Part shown: in pieces, positions 6,133 through 56,677 of the stretch
Layout: each line of letters starts with the position of its first letter
Numbering within the stretch: the stretch's first letter is position 1
Assembly: GCA_000004985.1 (NCBI GenBank)
Contig: GG738896.1
Source of the DNA: Naegleria gruberi
Lineage: Eukaryota
DNA length: 64,000 nucleotides
Reading direction: 5' to 3' (one strand)
Translations under genes and position numbers: made by a program
The notes under the pieces: generated by a model
Database searches by the model: none
The model's input: only the letters and a program-made list of their open reading frames with translations
What the model was told of the DNA's origin: nothing

Positions 6133-6561
6133 GATTCTATACACTTTATTGTTGTATTCTTCTTCTTCATTGTAAATATTTAAAAGATAATTCAGGATAA
6201 TCATACTTTTCCAGAATATCGACACCATCTGATGTATTATACAAAGTATTGAATGGGAATTCACCGAATCTAAAACTTCCACTAAGAATTTTCAGTCTGA
6301 ACAATAGAACCTAAATATTCCATTTGAAGCTATTTGATTGGATTTTACAATTCCAAACAAACATCAAATGGATTAATCGATTTTCCCGCCTCAATCGGAA
6401 TTATTTACAACTATTAATGGCCATTGAGAGGATTCAATACTACACTTTAAACTTTCAGTTGAGTAAGAACTTGTTGTATTATGAAGAGTGACTTGCTTTC
6501 TCTCTTCACTGACCCAATCTCACTACAACTTCTGACACCAGACAGCTGACATCTACGGCTA

Positions 6562-6569
6562 TAAAAACC
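6562..6569 (+). promoter_or_regulatory. TATA box (TATAAAAA) about 43 nt upstream of the ATG at 6612
   Basis: ggcTATAAAAAcctggcaatgcgcg lies directly upstream of the start of the polycationic protein gene. Confidence 0.4.
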
Positions 6570-6611
6570 TGGCAATGCGCGAATCATATCCAAACATCAA
6601 CAAGAAAAAAA

Positions 6612-8123
6612 ATGAACAAAATCTTCTCACTCTGCTTACTCGCATTGTTCTGTGCAGTTCTTTTCTGCGCTTCCACTTCTGAAGCCTTGAGCGTCATCAA
6701 AACCGTTCAAGCAAAGGCTGTCCCTGCCAATAAACCAAAACAACAAAAAGGAAAGAAATTTGGTAAACTCTTGAAGAAGGGTGCTTCCAAGAAGCAAATT
6801 AAGAAGGCTGCTAAGAAAGCTATCAAGAAATCAAAGAAGGAATTGAAGAAGGCTACCAAGAAGGTTAAGAAGGCTGCTAAGAAGAATCTTGCCAAGTGGA
6901 GAGCTTTGTGGGCTAAGTATAAGAGAATTGCTCAACGTGCTTTGAGAAAGTTTAGAAGAACTCAAAGGTAAGTGTCATGTCATTCGTGTTGACAATTAAC
7001 GAATAATTTTATTTGTTATCCTCTCTCTCGCTTGATGACTAAATTACGGAAAATATTCGAATGTTTATTATCATCATCATTTTGATTAACATACAACAAC
7101 AATTTGTGGACAATTTGTGTGATCATCATGTTGGAATGTCATGACTTTACAATATATTCTAAACGTATGATTAGAAAGTTGAAGAGAGCTCGTAGATCTG
7201 CTTCCAGAAAGACTGTTAGAAAGTTGAAGAAACAAGCCAAGAAGGCCAAGAAGACTGCCAAGAAGGCCCAAAAGAAGGTCAAGAAGGCTTCCAGAAAGGT
7301 TAAGAAGGCTAAGAAGCAAGTCAAGAAGGCTGCTAAGAAAGCTGCTAGAAAGCTCCAAAAGAAGGCTGCTAGAAAACTCAAGTTGAGCAAGACTTCTATC
7401 AAGAAACTCAATGCTACTGTTAAGAAGTTGTTAAAGTTGAAGAAGAAGTTGGGTAAGAAGTTCTCCAGAAAGTCAATTCCTGCCAAGATTAAATTGTTAG
7501 CTGCCAAGTTGAGAATTATTAAGAAGTGTAAGATTTCAAAGAAGTCTGCTGCTAAGAAGGCAAAGAAGGTTGCTGGTAAGAAGACTGCCAAGAAGGCCAA
7601 GAAGCAAGTTAAGAAGGCAAAGAAGGCTGAAAAGAAGGCTAAGAAGCTCGTCAAGCAAGCTAAGAAGGCTGCTAAGAGTGGAAACAAGAAGGCTGCCAAG
7701 AAGATTGCCAAGAAGGCTATTGTCAATGCTAAGAAGTCAATTGAAGTTGCCAAGAAGTCAGTTACTGTTGCTAAGGTTGCTGTTGAAAAGGCCAAGCAAG
7801 TTTTCACTACTATTGTCAACAAGCTTAAGGAATTAGTCAAGAAGGCTCAAATCACCGTTCAAACTGGTAAGACTACTGAAATCAAGAAGATTCAAAAGAA
7901 GGTTGAAGTTGTTAAGAAGACTGTCAAGAAGGCCAAGAAGAATGTCAAGAAGGCTCAAAAGAAGGCTAGAAAGGTTGTTAAGAAGGCTAAGAAGGTCATC
8001 AAGAAGGCCAAGAAGGTTCAAAAGCAAGCCAAGAGAGTTCTCAAGAATAAGGTCACTAAGAAGGGTATCAATAGACTTGTTAACAAGTTGATTAGACTCC
8101 AAAAGTGTTCCAAGAAGAACTAA
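6612..8123 (+). CDS. secreted polycationic Lys/Ala-repeat protein in two exons, about 6612..6967 and 7175..8123, with a 207-nt intron; it could instead be two tandem genes
   Basis: The N-terminus MNKIFSLCLLALFCAVLFCASTSEA is a clear signal peptide. The rest is dominated by KKAAKK, KKVKKA and KKAQKK repeats. ORF 6612-6971 ends at a TAA inside ggtaagt. Both ORFs are in the same frame, and the acceptor ttag at 7173-7174 joins them in phase. Confidence 0.6.
7190..8100 (+). repeat. coding tandem low-complexity repeat, imperfect AAG/GCT-rich units of about 18-24 nt
   Basis: aagaaggctgctaagaag and gccaagaaggccaagaag variants are reiterated. The repeat generates spurious ORFs in all frames on both strands. 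Confidence 0.6.
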
Positions 8124-8394
8124 ATTGATGACTAGTTTTTGTATATAAATCACCTCCATATGCTACAGATGTATATTAATGTGGTATAACCAAATAATAT
8201 TGAGTTATACTTTATCAACTGTGCAATAATTGTGTATAGTTCCAATAATAATAAATCAACCTATTTGTAAATCTTGTTTTGTTTTTCCCGCCAAATTTTT
8301 TATAAAATTATAAAAAAATGCCATTACTTGCATCCCACAACAACATTGTGTTCAATTTGAAAAGCATCGGAAGAGAATGAAAAACATGCTGCTT

Positions 8395-8545
8395 ATCTAT
8401 CGGCAAACGGCAAGTCGTCGTTGGGTGGATTGGAATGAATTCAGTCTCCCTCTAGGCTTCCTGTGATAACAAAATACCCCATGGTCTTGCATTTAGCCGC
8501 AGCGGCCCTCCCGACTCACGTCATGGTCGCCTCCTGAGAGATCAA
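8395..8545. other. GC-rich island of about 150 nt in a convergent 3' intergenic spacer, a candidate small non-coding RNA or 3'-end element
   Basis: The sequence ...ggcaagtcgtcgttgggtggattgg...ccccatggtcttgcatttagccgcagcggccctcccgactcacgtcatggtcgcctcctgag is clearly GC-richer than its flanks. It has no ORF. It does not match tRNA, 5S or U-snRNA consensus by eye. Confidence 0.2.
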
Positions 8546-13562: not shown

Positions 13563-14830
13563 TTATAATTGTTCTTCTTGTTGTTTTTGTTCTTCAGTAG
13601 TGTATTCATAAACATAATCAGTAATAATTTCCTTAGCTTCATCAGATAAATATTTAGAAATTGCTTTCTGGTCAACTTTAGCGAGAGAATCCCACTCATT
13701 CGAATGTTCCTTCTTGAAATCTGCCAAAATATCCTGAACAAACAAAGCCAAACACTTATTTCTCAATTTAAATGAAGTGATAATATTACCAATTTTGGAA
13801 ATGGCAGATTCCAATCGATTATCATTCAAATATTGAACTATTAAATCGAATACTGGAGTGGAAACAGATTCATTATCAAAGGTTGGCTTTTTGGTTTTTT
13901 TTCTAGGTCTTGGTGGCTTTTTTGGTTGCACAACTTCCTTAAATGCTTCATTCTTCTTCTTGATAATAAATCGTTCTCCCTTTTCCTTTGTGAACATATC
14001 TCTGATTGGCTTAATAACCACTCCTTCACAGATATTTGGACATGATTCAACGAGTGGGAGGTTGTAGAATAATTGTGGAATTTTGGTTGGATAATTGCAA
14101 TCGTATTCTAAACATTCTTCCAAAGTTCCTCTCATCACTTCTTTGGCATATCGAGAAATTCCACATTCAGTGAGTAATTGAATCATCTTGTCATAGGCCA
14201 AATAGAATCCTTCTTCCTTCTTTGTTTCTACATTTAATCCAAATACATAGACATCGAACATATAGAAATCATAATCAGGAGTATAATACACATGTTTTTG
14301 AATTGGATATCTTCCTTTTACATTTTCTATTTGATCATGAGGATATTGACCTCCAAAACTATTTCAAGAATTCCAAAATAAATAAATTTTACACTTAAGG
14401 ACACTTACATTTCTCCATAGAAATTAGCTCTTCTCACCTTAAAATTATCATTCGAATAGATATCACAAATACTCTTAAAAACCTTCTTTATCTGTTCCTC
14501 ATATCTATTCCTCACAATCTCCACAGCCTCAGGAAAGAAATCGTCATCTTCATGAGGTGATTTTTTCTTCTTTTGTTTTTCCTCTTCATCCAATCCAACA
14601 TATTGTCTTCGGGATGCAACCTGGCATTGAATATCTTCCACAAGACACGAATTGGCAGTCTGATAATTATCCCTCCACATTACAAAACTAAAATTACATC
14701 CATGAATCTTTTCAGAGACAACCCAAGGAATTGATGGATCATAATTCTCATCACGGATTAAATTCTTGGCAAATTCTTGATAGTGATTCTCGATGGAACT
14801 GTACGCTTTGAAATGATGTTGATTCTTCAT
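13563..14830 (-). CDS. Rnl2-family ATP-dependent RNA ligase in two exons, about 14830..14409 and 14310..13563, with an intron of about 98 nt
   Basis: The protein carries nucleotidyltransferase motif I EKIHGCNFSF (T4 Rnl2 has KIHGTN), motif III-like FDVYVFG, motif IV CEGVVIKP and motif V RFIIKKKNEAF. Exon 1 ends with at|gtaagt. The acceptor ag precedes a TATCCA... that restores the frame of ORF 14291 (GTG). Confidence 0.7.
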
Positions 14831-15012: not shown

Positions 15013-15960
15013 TTAAATGGCAGTTCCAGTTTCAGTCAATTGACCAAGACATTGTCTAGCTCCAACCTTTGAAATGGTTGGCCAAACTTGATTATCAATC
15101 TTATCAATCTTTGTCTTGTTCAAAACAATGACCTTCATATATTGTAAATAATAGTAAAGTTCCTTATCTGATTTTTCACATTCTCTCAATTTCTTATCCA
15201 AATCAGAGATGGAACGACCCAAACAATTCAACTTGACATTTCCTCCCCAAACATCTTTCAACCATCCACCAAATTTGTTCATGGTAATTCTGTCAGAATA
15301 AATTGGGACGAATTGATATTCGAATTTGGTGAATTCCTTTCTAGCAATAAGTTCTGAAACGAATTTTGCAACATCTTCATAATTGGAAATTTCAAATTCT
15401 TCATCACCAGTTCCATAGAAATTCAAAGCATGTTTCTTAGTATCGACAATGAAGGAAACTTGGAGCAACTTTTCAATAAAGATACCACACAAGATGGAAA
15501 TCCATTTCAATTGAGTATTCTGATTCAAGAGTGCGTGAACCTTCTTTCTTACATCAATTCTAGGCAACATTTCTGTATTATCAAGTTTAGTAAAATCAAT
15601 ACTAAAGTCAGATGGAATGTAATACTTGACGTTGGCCTTGATACATGATTCAATGACACGAGTTTCAGCTTTCAATTCTTCTTCATGATCGAAAAAGTTC
15701 ATACAATTCAACACCAAAGTGAAATCTTTGAGAATATTAACGAAATCTTCACATGAATCTTTCAAGACATCGAAACAGAAAATCTTTCCATTAAGCTTCT
15801 TCTCCCATACGTTCAATTTGTCACGACTTTCGGATGGAACTAACAAGGAGCATTTAACATCTTTTTGATGATTTTCGCACAAGTTTTTGACTATTTGGCA
15901 ACCAAGATGACCGGAAGCACCAAGGATTAGGACATTCAAATCAGAGATTTTAGATTCCAT
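15013..15960 (-). CDS. NmrA-like / isoflavone-reductase-like NAD(P)-binding protein
   Basis: The N-terminal Rossmann motif VLILGASGHLGCQIV is present. Overall similarity is to NmrA/PCBER-type atypical SDRs. The 315-codon ORF is intact. Confidence 0.65.
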   Translation of the reverse strand: MESKISDLNVLILGASGHLGCQIVKNLCENHQKDVKCSLLVPSESRDKLNVWEKKLNGKIFCFDVLKDSCEDFVNILKDFTLVLNCMNFFDHEEELKAETRVIESCIKANVKYYIPSDFSIDFTKLDNTEMLPRIDVRKKVHALLNQNTQLKWISILCGIFIEKLLQVSFIVDTKKHALNFYGTGDEEFEISNYEDVAKFVSELIARKEFTKFEYQFVPIYSDRITMNKFGGWLKDVWGGNVKLNCLGRSISDLDKKLRECEKSDKELYYYLQYMKVIVLNKTKIDKIDNQVWPTISKVGARQCLGQLTETGTAI

Positions 15961-16148: not shown

Positions 16149-17312
16149 TCAACAATTATTCATACGGTAAGCAAATGCATACTGAAGAGGAAATTGTAAA
16201 TCTTGAATTGAATCTTCCTTTGAACTAATCTCAAAATAAACTAATTTTGCATTTGAGAATTTCATTGCATCATTATATGTGGGCACAAGTTCAGCAATAT
16301 ATTCAGAAATTACTTGTTGAGAGACTTGTCTTTTCAAATCCCTCTTCATTCCCAAAATAATAAACAGTATGCTATCTTTTCTGGTATCTTCTTTCATTTC
16401 TCTGAAAATGTAAAATTGCTGGTCCAAATCGACAACTTGTTTTTTCATATCCTCAAATGAGGCGGAATCACTCAAATCAAAGCAGAAGAAAACAACACGG
16501 GCTCCTCTATAGTAAGATAATGAGTTATGTGAAAATTGTGGATCACCACTTGTGTCCCAAATTAGAAATTTCATCATACATTGACTATCGTTAAAGTATT
16601 TCGGATAGAATTCCACGCCAATTGTTGGACGATATATACTGCTAAATTCTGATTGGTGTAACCTTTTCAAATATTCACTCTTTCCACATTTCATAGGTCC
16701 TAACAATGTCACATTATGGAGATAGTCAATTTTCTTCTCTGGACGAGATTGACTCTTTCGAATTTCACTCATAAATCTTTCATACAATAAAACATAATCC
16801 CGTGGATGCACCATCTGCATCTGACTCTTCTCGTATGCAACTGGTTTGAAATGTATCCAAGTTTCATTGGCAAGCTTATTCAATTCTTGTCGCCAAAAAA
16901 TATCCAATCCCGACCAAACGTTGAAACTCTTTGAAACTCTTTCCATCATTATAACATCAAAGATTGTAAGATAATCCATAATGTGCATTTTCATCTCATC
17001 AGGTAATTTGATAATTAAAATTCCTAATTTTGTTGTTATTATTGAATTGTTAGTTTCATCATGTATACTATCAATTTGTTGTTGTTCATTGAAATTTTCA
17101 TCATGATCACAATTAATTAATTGATTATTATTCCGATCATCTTGAGAAATTAAATTATTCTCTTCTTGCTGTTCCGATGTGTTGGGAAGACTTTGAACCA
17201 ATGCTGAATATCTCGCTGATGAAACCAATTTCCAATGCGAAAATTGTTGATATCTTGAAAAATCGATTACCTTTCTAGTACTACTTGCTGGCGGCACTTG
17301 TTTTTGTCCCAT
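16149..17312 (-). CDS. F-box domain fused to a Rab-like small GTPase domain
   Basis: An F-box is present (LPDEMKMHIMDYLTIFDVIMMERVSKSFNVW). The GTPase motifs are G1 LLGPMKCGKSEY, switch I YRPTIGVEF, G3 WDTSGDP (Q replaced by D), YYRGARVVFFCFDLSD, G4 LGMKRD (NKxD replaced by MKRD) and G5 EISSK. Confidence 0.65.
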   Translation of the reverse strand: MGQKQVPPASSTRKVIDFSRYQQFSHWKLVSSARYSALVQSLPNTSEQQEENNLISQDDRNNNQLINCDHDENFNEQQQIDSIHDETNNSIITTKLGILIIKLPDEMKMHIMDYLTIFDVIMMERVSKSFNVWSGLDIFWRQELNKLANETWIHFKPVAYEKSQMQMVHPRDYVLLYERFMSEIRKSQSRPEKKIDYLHNVTLLGPMKCGKSEYLKRLHQSEFSSIYRPTIGVEFYPKYFNDSQCMMKFLIWDTSGDPQFSHNSLSYYRGARVVFFCFDLSDSASFEDMKKQVVDLDQQFYIFREMKEDTRKDSILFIILGMKRDLKRQVSQQVISEYIAELVPTYNDAMKFSNAKLVYFEISSKEDSIQDLQFPLQYAFAYRMNNC

Positions 17313-18408: not shown

Positions 18409-19314
18409 TTAAGCATTGAAACCAGCAGCTCTAACAACTTGTGCAGAGGTGTATGATGAAACACTGAATCCAGAATCATTAACTTCGAAAACACCATTAG
18501 AGTAACTCTTAGCCAAAACCCAATGTCCACCATTTCTGACGTTCAAAATGACAACCTTTCCTTGACAGACCCAATTGATAATAGCTTGCTTATCAGTAGT
18601 TTGTCCAAGATAATTGAATCCAAGTCTAGAAACAGCTCCCCAAACAAACAAATTTCCATAATAACCTCCATTCTTCAACAAGTATTGGTTCAATTGACCT
18701 GGGTTCATTGAACTCTTTCCTCTACCATTCAAAGCAGAACAAACTGAATTCATCAAACAACCAACTTGACAAATAGTGGAAGAACTTCCAAGTCTATCAC
18801 CACCCCATCTAGAATCACATTGTTTAAAGAGTGGATAATTGTAATTTTGTCTACAACCAGATGTAGAACCACCACCACCACCTCCATTTTGAACAACAGT
18901 TAAGAAATTAGAGGCAGCATAACCAGTTCCAAAACTACCAGAAACCTTATACCAAGTATAACCACATCCACTTTGGACTTCACCAGTGAATTTGACAACT
19001 TGACCATTTCCAAGAGTAGTAATAATTGATTTACCAGTGCATGGTCCACTTCTGACATTCAAAGCAGTGGTTGCTTTCAAGGAAGCTCCACTAGCAATTG
19101 ATGAATCAGATTCGGCATCTGACATTTCGAAATCTTCTTCAGATTCGGATTGAACACTTTGAATGGCATTAATTGGAAGATCAATAGCGAAATTGGTGGC
19201 CAATGAAGGTTCTCCAACCAATTTGACACTTCTATTGTTTGGATAAGCACGTTGACAAGAGACAACGACAGCAAATGTCAAGAGCAATAAAATTCCCACG
19301 AAGATTTTGTTCAT
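18409..19314 (-). CDS. secreted bacterial-type cell-wall hydrolase candidate: signal peptide, SH3b-like domain, poly-Gly linker, then papain-fold (peptidase C39-like) domain
   Basis: The likely start is MNKIFVGILLLLTFAVVVSC at 19314. The SH3b-like segment is GPCTGKSIITTLGNGQVVKFTGEVQSGCGYTWYKV. The linker GGGGGGS is encoded by a ggtggtggtggtggt run at about 18870-18890. A Cys/His peptidase pattern follows (CDSRWGG...CQVGCLMNSVCSALNG...GGHWVLAKS). Confidence 0.65.
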   Translation of the reverse strand: MNKIFVGILLLLTFAVVVSCQRAYPNNRSVKLVGEPSLATNFAIDLPINAIQSVQSESEEDFEMSDAESDSSIASGASLKATTALNVRSGPCTGKSIITTLGNGQVVKFTGEVQSGCGYTWYKVSGSFGTGYAASNFLTVVQNGGGGGGSTSGCRQNYNYPLFKQCDSRWGGDRLGSSSTICQVGCLMNSVCSALNGRGKSSMNPGQLNQYLLKNGGYYGNLFVWGAVSRLGFNYLGQTTDKQAIINWVCQGKVVILNVRNGGHWVLAKSYSNGVFEVNDSGFSVSSYTSAQVVRAAGFNA

Positions 19315-19729
19315 TTTTTTTGTGATGATTTTTTGGCAGTTGAAAGGTTGAATATTAAAATCAAATTGCTGCTCAGCCAATACGGATAATAAACATGAAC
19401 GAGATGGTAATGAAAGAATAAAAATAGAATGTTAAATAATTGGGGCATTATGATATTGAGGGGGCATTGAAACGAATCGAATAGAAAATGTGCATTTATT
19501 CCAAACAAAATACTAAGTGATGCTTGAAAGGTAATCTTGCGCTGGAGTAACCGACAACATGATCTTGAAATGCATGCTTGTTGTTTGAAGAAGGTGGTTA
19601 TTGTAATAGTTTGTGATTGTTCAAATGGATGTTAGATAGAGAAATTTCAATCTTTTTGCATCTACAGTTCTATCAAATAACTTCTTTCCAATATTCGAAT
19701 AAGATTTTTACAAAATATACAATAGGATT

Positions 19730-21037: not shown

Positions 21038-24000
21038 TTATTCAACCTTAGATGATTGCTCTGATTGTTCTAGAGAGAGGGATCTGAAAATAGGGAAGAA
21101 GGAAGTAACATCATCATTGTCTTCACATCGATCGTAAATGTATTGTTCTGTACCTGTGAATTCAGTCACTGATTTTTGGTAGAGGTAAATTAAAAAGTAG
21201 ACATAATTCCACAAGTAGTGTTCCTCCTTGACATGCTTTTCAAAGGTGATACCTTCATTGGCTCTTGTATCGAATTTAGTTCGTTCCAATCCACAAATAA
21301 AACACTTATCTCGAATGTCCTTCTTTCTGTCTTCTCTTTCATTTCTCAGTACTTCAAACGAATCGAGAATGACACCAAACACAACGTTAACAAGTAACAC
21401 AATAACTATCACTAAAAAGGAAAGGTCAAGTATGGCTCTCTGAACTGAAACATTTGGATCATAAATATCCTCCCAAAAAGATTCTCCTCTAAAGCCATAA
21501 TCCAACATGGTCACATAGCAAGCTAACATATCTTCACATGTCTTGTCGCCTGTCTTGGAGATTTTAAAATCTGAAGAAAAGAAGGTAAAATAGAGTGTAC
21601 CAAAGAAGAATAAGGCAATACACAACAACATTCCTGTAAAGAACAAACGTTTCACATTCGAAGTAACTGATTTCAACACATCGGTCAATGACTTGAAGAT
21701 GTAAACCATTTCAAAAAGCTGTATCGAGTAAATAATTGGAGTTATCAACAATCCAATCACAGAGACTACAATGTAAATAATAAAATACCAAATTTGAGAA
21801 TCTTGTATGGTATATAAAAAGCATTTGGTCATAAAATCAAAATCTCTTGGAATTGAGTCCCACGTTTCGTTTTTCTTTAGCTTGAATCGTTTCTTCACTT
21901 CCAACGTCAAGAAGAGTGATACATAAATGACAAATAGAATTACCAGGAAAATCAATTGTGTCACACCAACAATAATAAGAATTATATCACTTGCAAGATT
22001 TCTAGGTGCTGTAGTTTTGGTGAGAGCATATACATCAAAGTCACTGCCAGGTAAAGGTATTTGAGAATACTCTGTTGTTGCATAAATTCTCTTAAATGTT
22101 CCCAAAACAATAATATTAATAATAACAGAGAGGAAGAATGAAGACAATCTCAAGTAATCCCACCAATTGGCAATATATTCCCATGATGCTGTTTTAACCT
22201 CTTGTTTCTTCTTTTTCTTTCGTTTTGCTAGCAAATTGCTGGTTGTGGCAACGAGAGACATTGAAGGCAAAAGATTTTCCATTTCCTCCTCTGGTTCCTC
22301 TTCTTCTTTCTTGTTGAGATTCGGAATAGTAAAAGTCTTTTTCATATTTTCATAGTGACACATTTCCACATAGAATGTACTGAATGTGTCATTGTACAAT
22401 TTCCTAACTTTTTCTTGTGGAGTCATTACGTGCAACGAATTGGCATAGTTGCTTCTTGCCTTATCGATAATATTGTTACATATTGTTGGTTTGGGAAAGT
22501 AGATCTTTTCAAGTACGTTATTTCTCAATACTTCAATGCTACCAGTTCTTTGTTTGAAATAAGAGAGCTCCTTTGAATTGGTTTGGAAAAAGTTGGCTAC
22601 TCTTGATTCCTCTTCCAAAGCTTGAGTACCCTTTCTGAATTCAGTCTCACTGTCCCTGATCATGGAGAGAAGGAAAAAGATGTGAGTTCCCAAGTCATCG
22701 TATTGCAATCTAATCTTCTCGAGATTGTCCTCCATATAGTCGTCGACACGGATTGGCTTCTTTGAACTCTTCTCAGATTGATACAAAACATGGAATCCAA
22801 AGTCTTTACGCATTCTCTTTTTGAGTCTTTCAAGATCATCACAATCATCATGGTTATTACCCGATAGAGTTTCGAACAATCTCAAAATGTACAATAATTT
22901 TTGTTCAAAATCATCCAAATTCAAAGAATTTTTCATGAATTCTAATGTGACTGTGTTTCTTCCTTCCAATAGAGATATTAAGAAGAGTGTAATTTCCTTC
23001 TTGAGGTCAAGCTCTTGTTCCTTCAACAACTTGCTGTCATCGTAGGTCTTACTCATGATTTCATTGATAAGTCTTGGATAAATCTTATTGGATGTACCAA
23101 TTAAATTTTGGTTAAAGACAGCAGGTCCTTGGACAAATTCGGTCAGGGTCTTAAAACCTTGGATGGCTACTTGAACATTGTCTGCATCCAATTTCTTTTC
23201 CAAAGCAATCAAATATTCAATAATTTCCGTAATTAAATCAAAGCTGAAAATATTTCTTGGTTGATGTTTCAATAGGGCTTGATTTTTGGTATTATGGCCT
23301 TCACACAATAATCTCAAAAATTCCATAGTGTTAAAAATGAATCCCTTTTCTACAAATTCCACACCAACTTCATCTTCTTCGTTATCATGGTCAGCATTGA
23401 GGTTAGTTGTAGACTTTTTCTGGTTAGCTAGTGCCAACTCCTTGTCTCTCTTTTTCTTCAAGTGATTCTTCATTTGTTTGATTTCAATCTTTGAGAGACG
23501 GATTCTGTCTCTAAGAGACATGAAAAATTCGGTAGAGTCTTGATCTGTAAGAAGCGAATAAATATGATTCTGAACGTCAAGATCTCCGTCATTCAATATT
23601 AAAATACCAAGCTCCAAAGCTGATTTTGCAATTTGATGGTGGTTAGAGTTGAGGAATTCAATAACTACCTCAGGAATTTTCTTTTCCACCAAATCTAATT
23701 TAAGAGTTGATTCTTCGGTTTGTTGGTTTTGCCTTTCAACAATACTCTTCAAAATATCCATACCAAAGAGTCCTACCTTCATGTTCTGAAGAAGTAAACC
23801 AGAACTATTCAAGTCACGTAATACATTGACGAGTGTTTTGATAAATCCATCATATTTGATAAATATGGCAGCAAGCTCTGAAAAGTTGGAAAAGTTTCTA
23901 TTAATCTTGGAAATTATTCTGTCTTTCAAGTACTTTTTGTATGTGTTGTGGATAAGTTCGTCCTTCTCGGTACTGGTTGATGTTTGTATTCTTGATCTAT

Positions 24001-27000
24001 GTACCTTGGCTTTAGTGGCCTTATTTGAAATGAAATTAGAAATTGCTTTCTGACTAGTTGAAGACATACTTCTCTTCAACATGGCCTGAATACATTTGAG
24101 AACTTTATCCCTATTCTCTGGATTTGGTGTATGTTTGTGAAGTTCTATGAGTTTTATCAACAAATCTTCTGCAATATCCAACTGTTCTTTTGTCAGATTT
24201 GGAGGTGGGAAGTGGAGATGGAAATAATCTCTCACACAAGGAATCATAATATCAAACAAATAGGTATTATCAACTTGATAGGTTTCTTGATCTTCCTCAC
24301 TAGGTCCAACGACTTTTGGAAGTGCTACAGAGTATGTTTTCGAAGATCGTTTGGAAGCAGTTGTTGACAATCCACGGTTTTTGGTTGGAGTAGCAAACAG
24401 TGAAGTGTTTGAGAGGGTTTTGCTTGGTGTTGTTGGGGTTCGAGTATGGGCATGCATAATACTTTGTCTTTCACCTTTTTGTGTGGATAAAATCAAGTCG
24501 TTACCATCTGATTCATTTGAATAGGTCATTTCTAACACTTCCAATTCAGTAACCATTTTAGAGAATAACTTGAAAAGCATTGGATGATGAACATTTACCA
24601 TCTTGCTCTCAGATTCTGTAGAGTCATCTGATGCCTTTTCAACATTCAAGTAAATTTCATCAATAACTTTAACCAATGGATTTCTCAATACAGGTAGAGT
24701 ACAACAAATAACTTGTTCTAAAAGTTCTTCATAGCTGTAGAGGGTTTGTAATTTAAGCTCACTCTCTCTGTTTTTACCATCAGCAAGAGAGGCCAACAAG
24801 TATAAAAGGGCAATGTGATAATTTAAAATACCATCTGGTTCAGTTTTGTGTTCACCTTTGATAATTCTTTGATTACGTTCTCTGAGACCTTCTTCGTCTT
24901 TGAAAAGAATCATAATGTCCTTCTTTCTTTCGAGCAGATATTTGGTAATGAGTGATTGGTTTCGTTTGATTGGATTGCCATTATTTGTTCCCAGAATGAC
25001 ATGCAAGAACAACAACATGAAAGAGCAAGGTTGCTCAGCAATTTGGTCAATGTAGTGTTCGATTAATTTTTCTTCAATAGTACTGCACAGACCTCTATTG
25101 TCTCTTACCATTTCACAAAGGAGAATGACAATCTTCTTATCTAGACTTCTATTCTCACCAATAGTGTGAATAAAGAATTCCAATTGTTTGAACATAATCT
25201 TTTGATTGTCTTGATTTCCTCTAACAAAAGCAATTAAAATATCAATACCAATCTCTTCAATTTCCTTGCTCACAATATAATCCTTCTTGAGGAATGTGAG
25301 AATAATATCATAAATGAAGAGATTTCTCACTATTCTTTGTGATCTTTGACCATTCTTCTTGATATCTGATAGGATTTCATTGAGAGCTTTTAGGACTTTT
25401 TTCTCTTCCTGTTCTGTGAGTCTTCTAGTACCAAAATAATTGCTTTGACCATAACCAAAAACAGATCGCAACTCAACTACCTGTGAAAGTAGCAAATCGT
25501 AGGATTTAGCCATTTCTCTCGAAACGATAAGTTCAATCTTTGGAAGAACTTCACATAATTCTTGAGCAGATCTGTACTTTCTAATTAGTAAATCAAGGCA
25601 GGTTGTAGCGAGTTCCTTATTTTCATATTTGGTCAGCGAAAGAATTTTAACATCGAATCGATCCATCTTGTTGAAAATAACATCCTTTTCGAGAATATCT
25701 TTGATTACAGCATATTCATTAGAGTCAATTTCGGCAAGTCTTTTCTGTTGTAAAGCTCTATTGTCCATTGGTATCACCTCTTGTTCTCTAAGTACAGTCT
25801 CAATCTCTTCCTCTCTGTATTTCTTCCAAAAGAATTGCAAGAATTTTGTCACTCTCTTGTCTAAAATAATGTCTAGAATCATGTGGAAGATGGAAGCAAT
25901 TTCAATTTTGATCTTCATGAGGGTTAAATTTTCTTCTACGTTTTTGTGTCTTTCTTCCTCACTAAGAATTCTACCATCCTTCTTGTCATTATCTCCTCTG
26001 AGCATATCAAAGAGAGAATTCAACAAATCACCCTCCTCAAAGTCTATCAATGTAAGAACTCCAAATTCCAACATTCTCTTACACATAATTACAACGTATA
26101 ATGTAAAGTTGTTGTGATCCTTCTTTTCTAAAGACACATCCAAGCTAACATTCTCTCTAAGGAATTTCCCTAAAAAATCTTTGATTTCTGCCAAATCCTT
26201 TGAGTTGCCGTCTTCTTTTGATCTTTGATTGAGAGTACTGGTTTTTCTGGTGTAGTCAATCAGTGGTTTCTTTTCTCTCTTCTCCGTATCAATGAAAGTT
26301 TGGATCAAAAGCTTTACAAATGATGTTCTGACGGCTGGTGTTAAATTCTTATCAGAGACACATTTGTGGACAACTTCGTAGGTGAACAGAGAAACAACAG
26401 ATCTTCTCGCATCCTCAATTTCTTCATTTCTTCCTGTACAGAGGGCAGCAAAAAGACGAATTTCCTCTTGGAAGAAGATGAGTTGTTCATAATTTGGTCT
26501 TGTGTATCCATTGTATGTATCATCTGTTGCAGACTGAGAGAAACTAATCAAGTCTATTTCATCATGATTGACTTCTACCACAACCTTGTCTTCATTGTTA
26601 AGCTTTGGAATGATAAAAACTCTTCTCAATTGGTCCTTATATTTTGAAAAAAGCAAATTACCAATATATACCTGATTTTTCACCACAGTTTTACCTTCAC
26701 AAATGATCAAGCTAGTCAAAAAGGATAAATAGACAGCCTTCTTCAAGCTCTTGGAACTTTGTCGCATACCAATCTTTGATGTGTTTTCAAAGAGAAGCTT
26801 GACGAAAAAGTCAATTTGTGACTCGGTAATCTTGTTCAAAAGTGGATAATTGTTGGATAAGATTTCCAACAGAGCTTCACTTGCAGCAATGCTATGTTCA
26901 ATCAGAGTTTGGATAAAGTTGATATATTGTGCCATGTAGAGACCGTTAGATTCGTTTGAAAGGACAAACTGTCTAATGAGTCTGAAGGAGTACTGAACCA

Positions 27001-29385
27001 CATCAAAATAAAGTGCCTTCTCTGGCTTTTCATAAATTAAAGATAAATCCTCAATTGATAAATATTTCTTCAATAATAGAGTGATATTTTCCATTACAAG
27101 ACCAATGACTCCCATATCTCTGATGATATTTTGTCTAAGTTTAACAGGAATACCACCTCTTGTTAGAGGGTCTGTCTCTTCACTAATAGTACAAAATCTA
27201 ATGCAATTTGCCAATGCACCAATGTAGAGTTTGATATCTGACTTGTCAATGAGCGAGTCGTCCAACTTGGATTTGAAATACCTAATAATTGGCATGTAAC
27301 CAGCTACGGTGAGTGCATCATTCAAATCCTCATGTGAAACAGCTGAAAAATTGAAAACATCCTGTTCAAACATTTTCAAAGATGAAGTTACTCTCTGATA
27401 GGTTGAGTCAGCAAGTGGTCTAGATATGTGTACCCAAGAATTAGTGGCTTCATGCCTCAATCTAAAGTAATCGGTGGTTTGAACTTTCTCACCCTTCTTT
27501 TGTCCTCCAGTCGAGTCGGTGAAATGGAAGACACTGGTTGGTATTGGTTGTGTAATCAAGTCATCAAAGTTTTCAACATGAAGAGTCCACAATGAATCAT
27601 TTTGTGTTACGCTGCCTGATCTATTTCCTCGTGGAGTGGCTACAATTGAACTTTTTCTAGGTGCATTAACTCCAAGTTGGCTCAAGTTATCACCAGATGT
27701 TGGTGTGTTTTCTCGTTCATATCTTTCTTCAATGGCATCATCCGCTTCAATGGTTATTCCTTTAATAGGACGAATCACCATGTATTTTCCACTTGCCAAG
27801 TGTCTTAGACGGAATTTCGAAGTCCACTTTACAGTACCAGAACAGCTAGAGTCTAAAAATTCCAATTGCCACAAAGTTTGAGGACTCACATAGTCAGAAG
27901 ATTTAGATTCCATACCAGCCAAGCTTGTATCCTCAGAGTCGTTGATTTGTAGATTGCTTGATTTCTTGAAAAATTTAATTCTATCCGTTTTTTCATTCAC
28001 TCCAATATATCCTTCCAATTCCTTGTGGTATATTCTCATAATGGTGGATCCTGCTTTGAGTTTTCTATTTGTTTCATCATTTTGTGGTGTGTATTTTTGG
28101 TAGAGTTTCATTCTCCACCTAGTGAATGCAGTACTATTCGCCATGTTAACTTCTCTTCTACTATCGTAGGAATATTTTCCTCTATTTCGTGATAATTTTA
28201 CAGCTTGTTGAGCTAATTCTGTGTATGAAGAATTTTCATTCACTCTTTGATAGGTACCATCATTGTCTTCTCCAGTTGTGTATCTATAATAGGATAAGTG
28301 AATAAATTGGTTGGACTTTTTGTTGTAAAGTCTAATTTGATCAGTGAGTTTAACTTGATCTCCATCCTTTTGAAAACTGGAATATGGCATTATTTGAAAG
28401 TATGAATAGGTAGATCCTTCTTTATCGAGGGCCAATCTCATACAATCCTTTTGCATTTCTGCAGATTCTCTTGCTACTGTCAGATAGCACTGTGTTTGTA
28501 CATGATACAATTGTACTGTTTGTCCATAGACAACTGGTTTTGAAAGGTTTCTTTGTGATTCCATCCTATTTTGTTCAAGTTCTCTTTCAGCTCGTTGTTC
28601 CAATTGTTGATATTCTGTTGAGAAGGAGGCTGTCGAAGGCATTACATTATTCTTGTTATCCTTTGTTTTTTTGTTGGCCTCTTTCAACTCTTGTTCTTCT
28701 TTGAAGGTTTTGAACTTTTTCAGTGCTGAATAACTCTTTGGATGACAAATCTTGAAAACACAATTAGAAAAGTTTGGTGTAAAGAAGGAAGAATCCTTTT
28801 CTGAAATGACAGATTCCACCAGACCACATCTAGCTTGTGGTTTGTTTCTAAAATATTGATGAAATAATAAAAGTAGTATTTAACAGAGAATAAAGAAGGT
28901 GAATAATTAGTTGAATATTTAAACAATATTTACCCTTTAACATTCTCGGAACAAGTCAAATTAATACCATCCACACTCAAGAACCCAATCATTGAATTAC
29001 CAGTACTTTTTGATGACAAATCCGTATAGAAGGAAATTTCCTCTCCAATTCTCAAATAATCTCCCTTCTTTTTCATCATCATATTATTCATCCACAATTG
29101 TTGCTCATCCTCCTTCACATCACTCATCACATCTTCATCCTCATCATACAAATGATGATCAAAGCCTTGTTGTTGCTGTGCAGAAGAGGATGATGATGAC
29201 GAATATTCGGAATGTTGTTCATGATGATGATTTGATGTGGCGCCATTATTTTTAACGGCAGAAGTGGCGCTTACCGATACGATGAGTTGTTCTTGTTGTT
29301 GATGAAATAAGAGTGCATAGTCAAAGAGGTGTTGTGATGATGGTTCGGAAGAGTTGCTATTGTTATGATTATTGGATAGTGTCAT
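21038..29385 (-). CDS. inositol 1,4,5-trisphosphate receptor-like Ca2+ release channel in two exons, about 29385 or 29082..28934 and 28847..21038, with an 86-nt intron
   Basis: Exon 1 (...DYLRIGEEISFYTD..GFLSVDG) plus exon 2 (CGLVESV...CVFKICHPKSYSALKKF) reproduce the IP3R N-terminus (LHIGD..., CLFKLC). Exon 1 ends with gg|gtaaat. The acceptor ttttag at 28848-28849 joins in phase to the 2593-aa ORF, whose track start is GTG. The C-terminus has IP3R hallmarks FLVIVIVLLVNVVFGVILDSF and CFICGLERTKFD plus the conserved tail. The upstream in-frame 100 aa are Gln/Ser-rich. Alternative ATGs lie at 29082-29076. Confidence 0.85.
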
Positions 29386-36173: not shown

Positions 36174-37895
36174 ATGCAGAAATTCAAAAGCAGCTGCCTA
36201 TTCACAGCCAATCCATTTAATAAATATTCCTCATCATTGGGAGGCTTATTTTTACAGCAGCATCATCATCAAAAGAATATCTTCCGAATCACCTCCTCTA
36301 ACAATTTAAATAAGAATTATAGTCAGAATTTTAATCGGTTTGTTGGAGAGAACAAGCCTTTGGAAAAATCTCATCATGATGGTGCAGGAAAAGAATCATC
36401 AAATTTGGAGAAGAAATTAAATAATGGAAAGAATGTGCATATGAGAAGGGAAAATCATGCAATGTTTATGGAAAGGACAAGAGAATTGAATGAGAGGAGG
36501 GATGAAATTATACCACTGCTGGCAAGTCCATTGAAAACTGAGGAGACCATTGAGAGATTTATGAGTAATTCAAAGAGGAATTTTACATTTGTCAATGATC
36601 AGGCCAAGGTGAATGTGTTAAAGGCCAAACTCTTGGAAAAGAAGGATGAATTGATTGTTTTTGAGGGAACGTATCATAACATGTTGGAATTATATAATGG
36701 ATTGAAGAGGAAAATTTCAGAATACTTGAATGAGAGAATTTCCAATGATTCGAGGCCTAAATCATTGAAGGAAAAGTATTTGGAGAATCACATTTCTAAA
36801 CTCGAATTTACTGAAATAATGTCTAGATTTGGAGTATTGGGAAGAATGGTGAATGGCTCTTTGCAAGTTAATGTGAAGAAATTGCCAACTTTGGATTTGT
36901 TGGATAGACTTGGAAATTTCACAATAGAACAATCTAGGAAAATGAAACCAGAAGTGGTGAGGAGCGAAATATTCATACCAATTCATACATTGATATCTTC
37001 AATCAAGTCGATGGATCAATGGGAAAAGAAGGGAATTGAATTGGAAACTGTTGAAGATGAGAAAGTTACAATTTATCCACATTTTGGAGTTTACATGCCA
37101 ACAAGGAAGGAATTATTCACATCATTAATCAAACAATCAGTCAATGAGCTTATTAATTCTAAATTGACAAATAGTAAGAAACCTAAATTGGAAATTTTGG
37201 ATTTGGGCGCTGGATCTGGAGTGTTTTCAATCTATGTTTCCAAATTAATTTCAGAAAATGTTTCAGATTTGGAAATTAAATTTGTAGATATCAATCCATG
37301 GGCGTTGGAATGTTCAAAATTTAATTTTGAAAATAATTTTAAATCTTGCAATAACATTAGTGGAAAATATGTTCAAGTTGATTTGACAAGTGACAATAAT
37401 CTGAATGAATCGAAAGATAGTAATTCTATTAATTTAATATTGTGCAATCCACCTTGGATATCCATAGAGAAGAAAGATTATGAACACATTCAGAATGAAA
37501 GGATGAAATTCGGTTCATTTAAAAATACAATTGATTTATCAATATTTGACACGGATTATGAATTTCTGGACCAATTTTTACATCTCCTCCAGAAATCACA
37601 AAACAAACAAACATTTGGAATGCTGTTAGTGAGTAATGTTGGACATTTGGTAGGAGTGGAACAAATTTCAATATTGCAAGCTTTGGAAAAAAAGATAATA
37701 GGAACAAACATCAAGATTGAGAAGGTGGTTACTTTGAGGAGAGAACAGGGGTTGAATCAAGAATTGTCAGTGAAAAAGTATTTGGTCAATAATCCACTTT
37801 CCTCCAAGAGGAAGAAATCTCCTCATCAAAATTTAATTCAAGATACAAAGGCCAGTGAAGAAGTTTATTGTGTAAATCTCAGGAGAATTGATTAA
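36174..37895 (+). CDS. class I SAM-dependent methyltransferase, HemK/RsmC-like, with an NPPW motif
   Basis: Motif I is ILDLGAGSGVFS. Motif IV is LILCNPPW, about 80 aa downstream. The protein has a long N-terminal extension with a basic low-complexity start. Confidence 0.6.
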   Translation: MQKFKSSCLFTANPFNKYSSSLGGLFLQQHHHQKNIFRITSSNNLNKNYSQNFNRFVGENKPLEKSHHDGAGKESSNLEKKLNNGKNVHMRRENHAMFMERTRELNERRDEIIPLLASPLKTEETIERFMSNSKRNFTFVNDQAKVNVLKAKLLEKKDELIVFEGTYHNMLELYNGLKRKISEYLNERISNDSRPKSLKEKYLENHISKLEFTEIMSRFGVLGRMVNGSLQVNVKKLPTLDLLDRLGNFTIEQSRKMKPEVVRSEIFIPIHTLISSIKSMDQWEKKGIELETVEDEKVTIYPHFGVYMPTRKELFTSLIKQSVNELINSKLTNSKKPKLEILDLGAGSGVFSIYVSKLISENVSDLEIKFVDINPWALECSKFNFENNFKSCNNISGKYVQVDLTSDNNLNESKDSNSINLILCNPPWISIEKKDYEHIQNERMKFGSFKNTIDLSIFDTDYEFLDQFLHLLQKSQNKQTFGMLLVSNVGHLVGVEQISILQALEKKIIGTNIKIEKVVTLRREQGLNQELSVKKYLVNNPLSSKRKKSPHQNLIQDTKASEEVYCVNLRRID

Positions 37896-48815: not shown

Positions 48816-49367
48816 TTATTCCTTATTCGAAAGTACCAGTAGGATCAACACTCCAATTACAATATATTTAACAATTGGATAGTTAGTAATAATAATTGTT
48901 GCATATCCTAAATAGGGCAGCATAAAGTTAACTCTTCCAATAATATGAGATCGATCTAACCATTGCAAATCAGTACCATATATTCCGTATCGATCATCGA
49001 ATTGGTTGTGGTCTCCTTTTGTTAGAATTTTTACATCCTTATCCTGTATTCCACTAAAAAGATTTGTTTGAGCTTTAGTATTGTGAAGTCGAATCACTCT
49101 GTGAACGATTGGAATTTCTTTTGATTCCAATTTATAGACAATGATATCACCAATATGAATAGGTTCCGATGAAAGGGAAAGGAATAGAATATCACCCTTG
49201 TAAAATGCTGGTTCCATGCTGCCAGTCAACACAACAACAATTGGTGATTGACAATTGGAATAGATTGAAACAGATTTCCAAATTATCAAAGCACTGCAAA
49301 GAACTCCCAATAGAGAAAAGATTTGAGTGATATATTCTCTTGTGTGTTGTGATATTGTTAAGGCCAT
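48816..49367 (-). CDS. sec11: signal peptidase complex catalytic subunit SEC11/SPC18
   Basis: The SEC11 core motif reads IVVVLTGSMEPAFYKGDILFL. Translation likely starts at Met36 of the track ORF (MALTISQHTREYITQIFSLLGVL...), which gives a SEC11-sized protein. Confidence 0.75.
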   Translation of the reverse strand: MALTISQHTREYITQIFSLLGVLCSALIIWKSVSIYSNCQSPIVVVLTGSMEPAFYKGDILFLSLSSEPIHIGDIIVYKLESKEIPIVHRVIRLHNTKAQTNLFSGIQDKDVKILTKGDHNQFDDRYGIYGTDLQWLDRSHIIGRVNFMLPYLGYATIIITNYPIVKYIVIGVLILLVLSNKE

Positions 49368-49533
49368 TTTTTTCAAATGAAAATCATAAAGTTTCACCAC
49401 AGCTTCTATTTCTAAAAATGGAAGACACGTGTTGTCCCAAACTACCACGTCATTAGTAAAAAGGCATTTCAATTTTGAATGTAAGTAAGGTATTCATTGA
49501 TAACAAGGAAAACATCAACTATGATATTGAAAA

Positions 49534-54252: not shown

Positions 54253-56677
54253 ATGTCAATTCAAATATCAAGAGTCGGTTTGATGAACTCACTCTTGTTG
54301 ATTTGTATTCTTCTTGCAACATTGATGGTGAGTGGTATTGATACTACTGCTGCTGTTACTACTAGAACCAAATCAGCAGTGCCAACAATTCCCGCCAAAT
54401 ACTTTAAAAAATTACAAGGACCACCATCAGAGTTTTCTCTTCACGCTTATCCAAAGCCTTCCGAAGGAGCTATTCAATCAGACTTTTATTTATATGTAGA
54501 GAAGTTTAAAAAGAGTGAGAGCTTGAAGGCCTCGACAACACATCAATATGAATGGAGTGCTCGTGTTGCTGTTGATAGTTCTGAACAAGTGGATTTATCC
54601 TTACTCTCACAATATGTCAAGAGTATGCGTGTTCAAGTTTTGGATCAACATGGTACTGACATTACTTCAATGGCTAGTTTTGTTGTTGATGAGGAAAGTT
54701 TTGGAGCCTTCTCAGATGGTGAAAATAACTTGTTACCTTCAAAAACTTTGAGATTTGATGCCAACTCAATTCGTCGTTTGAAAATCAATCAAAAGAGCAA
54801 GCAAACTAGTATTGGAAGTAATTATATTGATGAATGGATTGTAAATGTTTTTGTTGATGCACCTGCTTCAGCTCCAACCTATTATGACGATGAAGCATTG
54901 CACTTGTTGGTCTATAATCAATCTCCACTTCGTGCCTATACTCAATTACAATCATATGACAATCAATTGGTTGGTGAAAATGTCATTATTGAAACTTTCA
55001 TGTATGATGAAGATGTAACTCCAGTTAAGGCAATCAATGATATTCCAAGACCAATTCGTGTCTTTGCCACTGCCACTGATGAAACAATTTTGAGTGCTCA
55101 AATGGAAATCTTGTCACCAAGTGGTCAAGAAACCTCTATCAACATGCTTGATAATGGTCTTTTGGGTGATCGTATGGAAAATGATGGAATTTACTCTGCT
55201 GCTCTCAATGCTCAAGAAGCTGGTGACTATGTTATCACTGTCTCAGTCAAGGGTGTTATCAAGGGTAATGCCGTAAAGAATATCTCACGTCTCATTAATC
55301 AAGATCTCGTTGAATTTGAAAGAAGTACACACCATGTTGTTTCAATTGTTAAAAAGTCACTCGAGTTGACTCAAAATGCTGTTTTCTCATTCAATGCTCC
55401 TTCTGTTAAAACTGCTCAAATTGCTGATGTCACCTCACAAATGGTCGACGTCAAGTTGGTTGCCAAGCCATTAGATGCTGACGCTTTAGGTAAAAAGTTC
55501 AAGGCCTATGCTGAAGTTTACTCTGCCGGTGATGCTAAATCAAGTGTTCCAATTGCTTTTGTTTCAGGTATGGCCATTGCTGAAAAGTGTGACGGTACTG
55601 AATGCCCAGAAGGACTTATCTACTTGCCACTCCAAATGAGTTTGGCTTGGGTTGCTTTGGCTAGACAACAATCTAATGGAGTTATTTCTGCTCCATTCAT
55701 TTTGAAGAATGTCAATATTCAAGATGTTGCCACCTCTAATATTATTACCAAAGCTGATCAAACTCTTCCTGAATTGACTAGTTGTCATATCAAGTTACCA
55801 GAACATACCTTGTACAATGCTAGACCAGTTGATATTAACTACTTTTTAAACACTCATGAAGGTATGGAAAAGTTTGATGGTGTCATTACTGAATCAATGT
55901 TGTTTGGTCCAAGACCAACTGAAATTGCCACTAAGAGCCTTACCTCTTCAACACAACACAAGGTCTTGCTTATCCATGGTTATTGTTCTGGTTATGCTCC
56001 ATTCCCAAGCTCTGATTTCACCAATGCTGTCTATTTCAGTGATCATAATGCCAACAGAAACAATGATGAATTTGCCAGTATGATTTTCGAACTTGGTCAA
56101 ACCTTTGATTCATTCTCAATGGTTGGTCACTCACAAGGTGGTCTTGCTTCATTGCACTTATTTGCTTATTATTGGACTCATGCTGACGTTGCTGCTGCCT
56201 CAAAGAAGACTTTGGCTGGTGAAACTAGAAGAATTATCCAATCTGTTGGTTCTCCATACAGAGGATCTGGTTTGGCTGGTGTTTTGGCTAGTATTGGTAA
56301 AGTTGTTGGAATTGGATGTGGTAAACAAACTGATTTGACCTATGATGGCGCCAGTAAGTGGCTCAGTTCTATTCCAGTTGCTGCTCGTCAAGCTCTCTAT
56401 TACTCTTACACTCAATATAAGGATTGGTCTTGGTGTTCATTGCCAGCTAATGTAAGTATTTTATTTTTTAAAACTCAATTTACCAACTATGTCAATTCTA
56501 AAGGCTGTTTTGAAATTACCAAACGATGGAACCTGTGAAAAGAGTAGAGCTTCTGTTGATGGTGCAAATCACTATGACAGCAAGAAGGGATGGTGTCACA
56601 CCAACAAGATGAAATACAAAGGTCAATGTGAAGACTCTGAAAGAAATGCCGTTCTTAACAAGTATGCCCAGTTGTAA
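54253..56677 (+). CDS. secreted alpha/beta-hydrolase (lipase/esterase-like, GHSQG nucleophile elbow) with a beta-rich N-terminal domain of about 500 aa, in two exons, about 54253..56451 and 56504..56677
   Basis: The signal peptide is MSIQISRVGLMNSLLLICILLATLMVSG. The hydrolase segment reads IHGYCSGY...MVGHSQGGLASLH. The 52-nt intron is gtaagt...ctaaag and joins in phase to ORF 56489, which is in frame 2. Confidence 0.65.

Follow-up and report, generated by a model that had tools for sequence, protein, structure and literature searches.

How a bacterivorous soil amoeba would make, and to what end it would keep, a protein over one-third lysine that opens with a signal-type N-terminus is the question raised by positions 6612-8123 of the DNA analysed here, a 64,000-nucleotide (nt) stretch of the nuclear genome of the amoeboflagellate Naegleria gruberi (contig GG738896.1, assembly GCA_000004985.1) that is called the window throughout. 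A two-exon gene on the + strand occupies these positions, precisely where a first-pass annotation of the sequence had placed it, and the answer developed below, a tentative one, is that its product is an exported polycation directed at bacteria. A TATAAAA box (6560..6566, + strand, as are all features of the gene given below) stands 52 nt before the ATG, in keeping with the earlier statement that the gene is TATA-driven, and TATA-type boxes within 150 nt upstream are found at 4 of the 21 putative gene starts in the window. Exon 1 (6612..6967, 356 nt) carries residues 1-118 and 2 nt of codon 119, and ATG 6612 is the sole start codon within its open frame. The intron (6968..7174, 207 nt, phase 2) has a GTAAGT donor, a branch-like motif TTCTAAAC sitting 16 nt 5' of the first downstream AG and a TAG acceptor (TTAG), and exon 2 (7175..8123) supplies the third base of codon 119, residues 120-434 and a TAA stop. 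The splice join AG|A creates Arg119 and the reading frame is kept to the TAA at 8121-8123, with AATAAA as a candidate polyadenylation signal (8250..8255) 127 nt 3' of the stop. The genes of the window are long and have few introns, these being short and GTAAGT-initial like the donor here; G+C is 31-38%.

A second strain is represented by two 98%-identical metagenome contigs (L001 and L002; ENA ERZ929261, run ERR1078381), which were compared with the window over 6401-8400. Against L001 the coding 1305 nt show 6 substitutions (0.46%) and no indels, five of the six being synonymous and one a Lys to Arg change, and all six fall in exon 2, the 356 nt of exon 1 being without a difference. The non-coding parts show 19 differences in 695 nt (2.7%), including indels of +3 and −2 nt in the intron, where there are also two substitutions. 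Divergence in the exons is thereby about six-fold below that of the flanks and intron (P=5e-5), and the ratio of non-synonymous to synonymous change (dN/dS) is about 0.05 (P=0.002 for at least five of six synonymous, from one strain pair). The gene is real, coding and under purifying selection. Because the strain indels in the intron would break the frame and the exons have none, a one-gene model is indicated, and the sequence favours a single spliced gene in which a signal-sequence exon is joined to a long polycationic exon; the proposal of one gene with an intron at 6968-7174 therefore holds up, the join being in frame and of consensus type and the codon bias being common to both exons. The TATAAAA box is the same in L001, and the bases just 3' of it differ. 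A rapid expansion of the repeats, also suggested in the first-pass annotation, finds no echo in this comparison, the repeat number being equal and the exons free of indels relative to a strain with some 2-3% non-coding divergence, and the repeats themselves being degenerate at the DNA level (66-90% matches). As an observation apart, L001 and L002, although from one run (ERR1078381), differ by a 2-nt intron indel at window 7152-7153 and have all exonic substitutions in common, which suggests that the sample held two haplotypes or strains. Coding on the opposite strand, where a 233-amino-acid (aa) Phe/Leu/Ala open reading frame (ORF) spans 7139-7840, was considered and rejected, as the pattern of synonymous substitutions and the codon bias fit the + frame.

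The codon bias of the gene is the strongest in the window. Lysine is encoded by AAG in 142 of 156 cases (91%), compared with 50% in 17 other window ORFs; valine is GTT or GTC only (35/35), threonine ACT or ACC only (18/18) and arginine AGA or CGT only, and use of GTA, GTG, ACA, ACG, ATA, CTA, CTG, CAG, GAG and AGG is zero. The G+C fraction at third codon positions (GC3) is 0.53, as against 0.25-0.37 elsewhere in the window, and the effective number of codons (ENC), at 32.9 where other ORFs give 33-47, is level with that of ORF 18409-19380 for the window minimum. The bias is as strong in the non-repeat segments as elsewhere and is common to both exons; that it was merely inherited from a duplicated unit can on this count be ruled out. 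In relatives of Naegleria the strongly codon-biased genes are the highly expressed ones (PMC11702301), and since codon bias tracks expression there, the gene is probably highly expressed. Selection against runs of AAA in a Lys-rich mRNA may contribute to the AAG preference.

Any product begun in exon 1 must carry the signal-type N-terminus, the exon having only one ATG. The putative signal sequence MNKIFSLCLLALFCAVLFCASTSEA (6612..6686, residues 1-25) is laid out as MNK, an apolar core of 17 residues (I4-A20) and STSEA, with small residues at −3/−1 (S23, A25) and a Kyte-Doolittle 15-residue mean of up to 2.9; the assignment is heuristic and made from hydropathy and layout. A signal peptide had been called textbook, and as to type this stands, the adjective being slightly generous for a core that is long enough to be an anchor. 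A lower-charge linker LSVIKTVQAKAVPANKPKQQ follows (6687..6746, residues 26-45), which holds 2 of the 3 prolines and for which AlphaFold2 (AF2) gives a predicted local distance difference test score (pLDDT) below 50 at residues 32-48. No second hydrophobic segment is found in the 434-aa product, and its C-terminus has no KDEL, HDEL or other endoplasmic reticulum (ER) retention signal, no hydrophobic tail and no glycosylphosphatidylinositol-type end.

Composition makes the character of the remainder plain. The spliced product of 434 aa is 35.9% K, 15.0% A, 8.1% V, 7.4% L and 4.8% R, with 8 Glu, no Asp and 3 Pro, and the part after the signal has a mass of about 46.1 kDa, a calculated pI of about 12 and a net charge of about +169. 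A polycationic body behind the signal, as had been described, is thus borne out, and its lysine content, put earlier at about 45%, comes down to 35.9% for the whole chain and 37.8% for the part after the signal. K and R together make up 41% of the whole and 50-57% in the richest local 60-residue windows, despite which there are never more than three consecutive basic residues. A silaffin-like or adhesive Ser/Tyr/Gly-rich protein was also considered, and the composition does not match.

The body is modular. About 400 aa of KKAxKK repeats had been claimed, of which tight KKAxKKx arrays cover some 190 residues (46-91, 136-185, 251-295 and 353-399), the rest being less regular. The first Lys/Ala array (6747..6884, residues 46-91) leads into a Trp/Tyr/Phe- and Arg-rich amphipathic helix (residues 92-135) that is predicted to span the exon junction, with a hydrophobic moment (muH) of up to 0.87. 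Its exon-1 part NLAKWRALWAKYKRIAQRALRKFRRTQ (6885..6967; muH 0.67-0.87) lies within an AF2 helix at residues 60-127 of pLDDT 85-97 and contains the helix LAKWRALWAKYKRIAQRALRKFRR (residues 93-116, muH 0.67-0.87), so the amphipathic basic helix reported at the end of exon 1 is a real Trp/Arg helix there; the Arg-rich continuation KLKRARRSASRKTVRK (7176..7223) contains the sole RX[K/R]R motif, RARR|S (7185-7196, residues 123-126). Arginine is clustered in this region, with 12 of the 21 falling within residues 97-134. Beyond it come the second KKAxKKx array (7224..7373, residues 136-185, muH 0.6-0.7), a Leu/Ile/Lys-rich module (7374..7568, residues 186-250) with the sole sequon NAT (7410-7418, Asn198) and Cys237 (7527-7529), the third KKAxKKx array (7569..7703, residues 251-295), a lower-charge Val/Thr/Glu helical module (7704..7874, residues 296-352; AF2 helix 290-344), and the fourth array, of KKxVKKA type (7875..8015, residues 353-399), which has the best DNA-level repeat (period 63, 2.3 copies, 80% matches). 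A C-terminal amphipathic segment VQKQAKRVLKNKVTKKGINRLVNKLIRLQKCSKKN (8016..8120, residues 400-434) with Cys430 (8106-8108) completes the chain.

The order of residues within these modules is far from what composition would give. Averaged over 18-residue windows, the hydrophobic moment is 0.50, where same-residue shuffles give 0.25 +/- 0.02 (z=11.4), and codon identity has autocorrelation peaks at lags of 3/4, 7, 11, 14/15, 18, 22, 29, 36 and 40 (z up to 7.4). A windowed Fourier analysis puts the peak at exactly 100 degrees, or 3.6 residues per turn, in 25-, 40- and 60-residue windows alike, the power in 60-residue windows being 12.0 at 100 degrees compared with 10.6 at 98 and 7.6 at 102. AF2 run without an alignment predicts helices over nearly all of residues 60-433 (mean pLDDT 76.9, with stretches above 95 and a maximum of 98), and the breaks between helices coincide with Gly, Ser or Pro positions. 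Because the periodicity is 3.6, with a power clearly greater than at the heptad angle, the body is modelled as straight amphipathic alpha-helices in which a narrow apolar stripe of Ala, Val, Ile and Leu runs beside a broad face of Lys. A canonical coiled coil can be set aside, as the heptad value of about 103 degrees is not seen and the autocorrelation falls at 11, 18, 29, 36 and 40 and not at 21, 28, 35 and 42; the Pfam family Alanine_zipper (PF11839) reaches 18.1 bits where the gathering cut-off is 23.1 (E=0.003), and over residues 354-407 only. Proteins built of 11-mer repeats, of the group 3 LEA, apolipoprotein or synuclein type, have an 11/3 periodicity of about 98 degrees, the power at which is a close second to that at 100 degrees; of the other marks of this class, mixed acidic and basic helices are lacking (8 Glu, 0 Asp) and no LEA or Apolipoprotein match is found in Pfam. 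Foldseek finds no significant match in the PDB for the AF2 model, designed helical bundles being the best (E>=0.05), and a PDB sequence search likewise returns designed helical proteins only (E>=0.0035).

Searches for relatives gave little else. HMMER/phmmer against 1.84 billion representative proteins returned only the query's own exon-1 ORF (P0001); a local control puts the phmmer score to be expected for the exon-2 product at E=4e-140. The 326-aa exon-2 product called at L001 2318-3298 is missing from the searched protein collection, and a word-indexed protein search with a chimeric non-repeat query gave 733 candidates among which the exact 119-aa exon-1 ORF P0001 was not returned. It appears that Lys-rich and low-complexity proteins are under-represented in the searched collections, and because the collection omits the exon-2 product even where it was called, the absence of homologues is weak evidence as regards the Lys-rich part. 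Scans of JGI metagenomes, with a protein query and with the degenerate pattern KWRALWAKYK, found no matches; the 64-kb window holds no paralogue; and Pfam gives no domain above threshold and no Linker_histone match at E<=1. Exact protein look-ups were empty for the 434-aa spliced product, for the 430- and 427-aa products of alternative acceptors and for exon-2 products of 339, 331, 326 and 318 aa. Among the neighbours, ORFs 15013-15960 (−), 36174-37895 (+) and 60335-62533 (−) are exact NCBI N. gruberi proteins, as are two further ORFs, and the UniProt and locus-tag numbering between annotated neighbours leaves 6 slots for 7 candidate genes. Current protein collections seem either to lack the gene or to conceal it, and annotation by homology would therefore easily pass it over.

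As to what such a protein would do, the leading proposal, plausible and put forward tentatively, is a polycation confined to the lumen of the secretory pathway or phagosome, where bacterial prey would be bound, clumped or poisoned by it. It is drawn from charge, amphipathicity and the organism's lifestyle, and signal cleavage, cellular location, target and killing or binding activity all belong to its inferred part. The N-terminal signal would route the nascent chain into the ER, which would keep a protein of charge +169 off the nucleic acids and ribosomes of the amoeba itself. Endogenous polycations, where abundant, reportedly require neutralisation by phosphate groups (PMC10028949), and since such a load needs neutralising, sequestration in a lumen would be a sensible form of self-protection. 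The mature chain of about 46 kDa may by itself be unfolded or loosely helical, and contact with a polyanionic surface could then fold it into long straight amphipathic alpha-helices. Its likeliest targets would be ingested or nearby bacteria, by way of lipopolysaccharide, teichoic acids or acidic lipids and, once inside, of nucleic acids; a role directed at prey is favoured because bacterial envelopes and nucleic acids are the obvious polyanions that lumenal or secreted proteins meet in a bacterivore. In phagosomes or after secretion these targets might be coated, agglutinated, permeabilised and condensed, a form of "polycation poisoning" in which membrane activity would come from the more hydrophobic modules (the Trp/Arg helix of 92-135, the Leu/Lys module of 186-250 and the C-terminus) and polyanion condensation from the Ala-striped arrays.

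Several points weigh against this proposal. An orthologue beyond N. gruberi was not detected, in a collection, it should be said, that seems to under-represent Lys-rich proteins. An acidic pro-piece, which many antimicrobial-peptide precursors have, is absent (0 Asp, 8 Glu), and the 17-residue apolar core could serve as an uncleaved anchor. The apolar stripe is narrow and Ala-based, with a mean Eisenberg hydrophobicity <H> of −0.5 to −0.75 in the arrays, and so low a hydrophobicity with so narrow a stripe means that most of the chain would be a polyanion binder and not a membrane-lytic helix of the classic kind. The protein, of 46 kDa, is to our knowledge about ten times the size of any known helical antimicrobial peptide, and the known antibacterial effectors of Naegleria, the naegleriapores, are saposin-like and unrelated. 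A more specific version, which is possible and more doubtful, is of a gene-encoded ribosomal "polylysine", that is an exported helix chain of 46 kDa and charge +169 capturing or killing bacteria mainly through polyanion condensation or coacervation and not through pores.

Much the same facts, namely the signal sequence, the +169 charge, the low hydrophobicity of the arrays and a codon bias suggesting abundance, would also be expected of a structural partner for polyanions, a secreted or lumenal counter-ion, glue or scaffold and not a weapon. Such a protein might condense acidic polysaccharide or glycoprotein in the glycocalyx or the wall of the cyst, serve to pack polyphosphate into vesicles of acidocalcisome type, or form a self-made "poly-L-lysine" coat through which the negative amoeba adheres to negative soil minerals or glass. 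The two Cys residues in the mature part could cross-link chains, and the want of an acidic pro-piece, awkward for a prey-directed protein, suits one whose polyanion partner is encountered within the secretory pathway. Set against these, no gene for a polyanionic partner lies nearby, and the Trp/Arg and Leu/Lys modules look more membrane-active than scaffold-like, so that a structural role seems rather unlikely, if one to be kept in view.

Less probable again is that the N-terminus is an uncleaved anchor in N-out/C-in orientation, with the Lys helices lying on the cytosolic face of the ER and binding RNA, ribosomes or acidic lipids after the manner of p180/RRBP1 or kinectin. The core, at 17 residues or 20 if STS is counted, is on the long side for a signal peptide and has hydrophobicity enough for a membrane-spanning segment; the positive-inside rule, applied to the huge C-terminal positive charge, would favour the cytosol; and a high abundance would be in keeping with a structural role at the ER. 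However the charge nearest the core points the other way, being +2 on the N-side and +1 over the 15 residues of the C-side, and this favours an N-in, C-out orientation and hence a lumenal body. Dense charge begins only after a polar c-region with small −3/−1 residues and a low-charge spacer of about 20 residues, which is the layout of a cleaved signal, and no sequence similarity to p180 or kinectin was found among the 1.84 billion representative proteins. The anchored arrangement, an analogy at root, is accordingly to be thought unlikely, and the lumenal polycation is retained as the preferred reading.

A reading of the locus as two genes in place of one was also weighed. Exon 1 would encode a secreted basic peptide of 119 aa ending at the TAA within AG|GTAAGT, and exon 2 would be translated separately, from ATG 7167 (or 7128), as a cytosolic or nuclear nucleic-acid binder of 318-331 aa, for example a nucleolar or chromatin protein. 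An unspliced transcript does stop directly after Arg119, the ATGs at 7167 and 7128 are in frame, and prokaryote-style gene callers divide the locus in this way on the metagenome contigs, as is expected of such callers. But the frame carries through an intron with consensus GTAAGT...TAG ends, and the two parts are alike in their strong codon bias. Between them, the 207-nt spacer is without a TATA box and has 7 ATGs, of which 5 precede 7167, 4 of these opening ORFs of only 2-27 aa, and the 2-nt indel between strains alters the N-terminal extension that a start at ATG 7128 would give. Pfam, further, shows no H1 or other nuclear-protein domain, so two genes here would seem improbable. Since the unspliced mRNA ends at the TAA made by AG|GTAAGT, intron retention could give a short secreted form of 119 aa. 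That the ORF is non-functional low-complexity sequence, or annotation noise from an AAG-rich simple repeat, is highly improbable, for although the empty homologue search, the low-complexity composition and the lack of an exact match to annotated proteins for any gene model tried could be read in that way, dN/dS is about 0.05, the exons are free of indels despite their repeats, the 3.6-periodic amphipathic order is far above compositional expectation (z=11.4), the codon bias extends outside the repeats, and TATA box, splice consensus and poly(A) signal are all present.

The surroundings of the gene contain other ORFs of some interest. From an internal Met, ORF 18409-19380 (−) begins with MNKIFVGILLLLTFAVVVSCQ, which is signal-like and identical to the present gene product in its first five residues; it has a bacterial SH3 domain (Pfam SH3_3, E=1.3e-10) with cell-wall hydrolases and endolysins as PDB relatives, and a C-terminal part of about 150 aa with Cys and His that by eye resembles a peptidase of the papain/C39 type. 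The product is a candidate secreted hydrolase of peptidoglycan, perhaps bacterial in ancestry. ORF 48816-49472 (−) has the motif VLTGSMEPAFYKGDILFL and matches Peptidase_S26 at E=9.7e-5, with 22.8 bits where the cut-off is 22.9, and is probably a SEC11-type catalytic subunit of the ER signal peptidase, an enzyme that would cleave the signal discussed here. An unusual combination of an F-box (E=2.9e-4) and a Ras/Rab-family GTPase domain (E=8.6e-23) is found in ORF 16149-17312 (−), and ORF 13563-14291 (−) encodes a T4 Rnl2-type RNA ligase in a eukaryotic nuclear genome (T4_Rnl2_C E=1.4e-25, RNA_ligase E=2.6e-8) which probably extends upstream over a 50-nt GTAAGT intron at 14359-14408. ORF 21038-28819 (−), perhaps reaching to 29385, is of 2593 aa with C-terminal transmembrane segments and by eye resembles a channel of the IP3/ryanodine-receptor type, and ORF 54253-56538 (+), of 761 aa, has a signal-like N-terminus and a GHSQGG (GxSxG) motif of lipase/esterase type, Pfam giving nothing for it at E<=0.001. 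The window was also scanned for Rfam families and tRNA genes, without a match.

Were the protein indeed secreted or phagosomal and active on bacteria, cationic host-defence polypeptides would extend from peptides of 2-5 kDa to a patterned polycation of 46 kDa in a free-living bacterivore, and protists would have a class of defence or predation effector that has no homologue and, among helical antimicrobial polypeptides, no precedent in size. The protein would further serve as a natural model of the safe making and handling of an extremely charged protein, for which the AAG lysine codons, the limit of three basic residues in a row and the low-charge spacer after the signal are features of relevance, and a possible template for long genetically encodable polycations in antimicrobial coatings, nucleic-acid condensation and adhesion. 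If it proves to be a matrix or adhesion protein instead, it would show how an amoeba handles negative mineral surfaces or builds cyst walls.

Set beside known systems, the protein is best filed, from its sequence, as an unusual member of the secreted cationic amphipathic polypeptides, one without detectable relatives. The tail of linker histone H1 is, like it, very Lys/Ala-rich and binds polyanions by charge; H1 tails become helical on DNA, and fragments of H1 kill bacteria. In contrast to H1 it has an N-terminal signal sequence and lacks both the winged-helix and S/TPKK, and no homology was detected. The earlier remark that a globular H1 winged-helix domain is absent proves correct, with Pfam PF00538 unmatched at E<=1 and an AF2 model that is all alpha-helix without a beta-hairpin wing, whereas the accompanying description as H1-tail-like has to be given up for a protein with 3 Pro, no [ST]P[KR][KR] and a 3.6-periodic helix in place of a Pro-rich disordered tail. 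A nuclear or mitochondrial polycation of H1 or KAP type was also rejected, the signal sequence not being a presequence and a globular domain being absent.

The p180/RRBP1 and kinectin proteins of the mammalian ER combine an N-terminal anchor with a lysine-rich region, and the N. gruberi protein is like them in having a hydrophobic segment at the N-terminus and then a long, basic and largely helical domain; it shows no homology to them, and its flank charges and c-region favour a cleaved signal and a lumenal body. KERP1 of Entamoeba histolytica is, as here, a lineage-restricted, Lys-rich and alpha-helical amoeba protein without a domain assignment. KERP1 is rich in Glu as well as Lys and is not a polycation; here, 8 of the 434 residues are Glu and none is Asp, and the N-terminus is a signal sequence. 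Of the same genus, and of the secretory or granule pathway, are the naegleriapores, the known antibacterial and cytolytic arsenal of Naegleria, which are pore-forming, arise from multipeptide precursors and have a compact disulfide-locked saposin fold. No saposin domain and no sequence or structural similarity to them is found.

Similar in patterning are the cationic alpha-helical antimicrobial peptides such as cecropin, magainin, LL-37 and the designed (KLAKLAK)2, with which the protein has in common a Lys-rich amphipathic helix, a high muH and a signal-bearing precursor, and which its stretches AKKIAKKAIVNAKK, IKLLAAKLRIIKK and LAKWRALWAKYKRIAQRAL resemble. Those peptides are of 12-50 aa, compared with about 409 residues in the mature part here; there is no acidic pro-piece and, with a single RX[K/R]R site, no sign of cutting into peptides, and over most of the chain the apolar face is Ala-based, much narrower and of much lower hydrophobicity. 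In charge density and in expected physical behaviour the protein is comparable with poly-L-lysine and epsilon-poly-L-lysine. The polylysines adsorb to anionic surfaces, agglutinate cells, are antibacterial and pass from coil to helix on charge neutralisation. They are synthetic or non-ribosomal products, whereas the N. gruberi protein is ribosomally made, keeps to at most three basic residues in a row, and is patterned, with hydrophobic modules interspersed along it.

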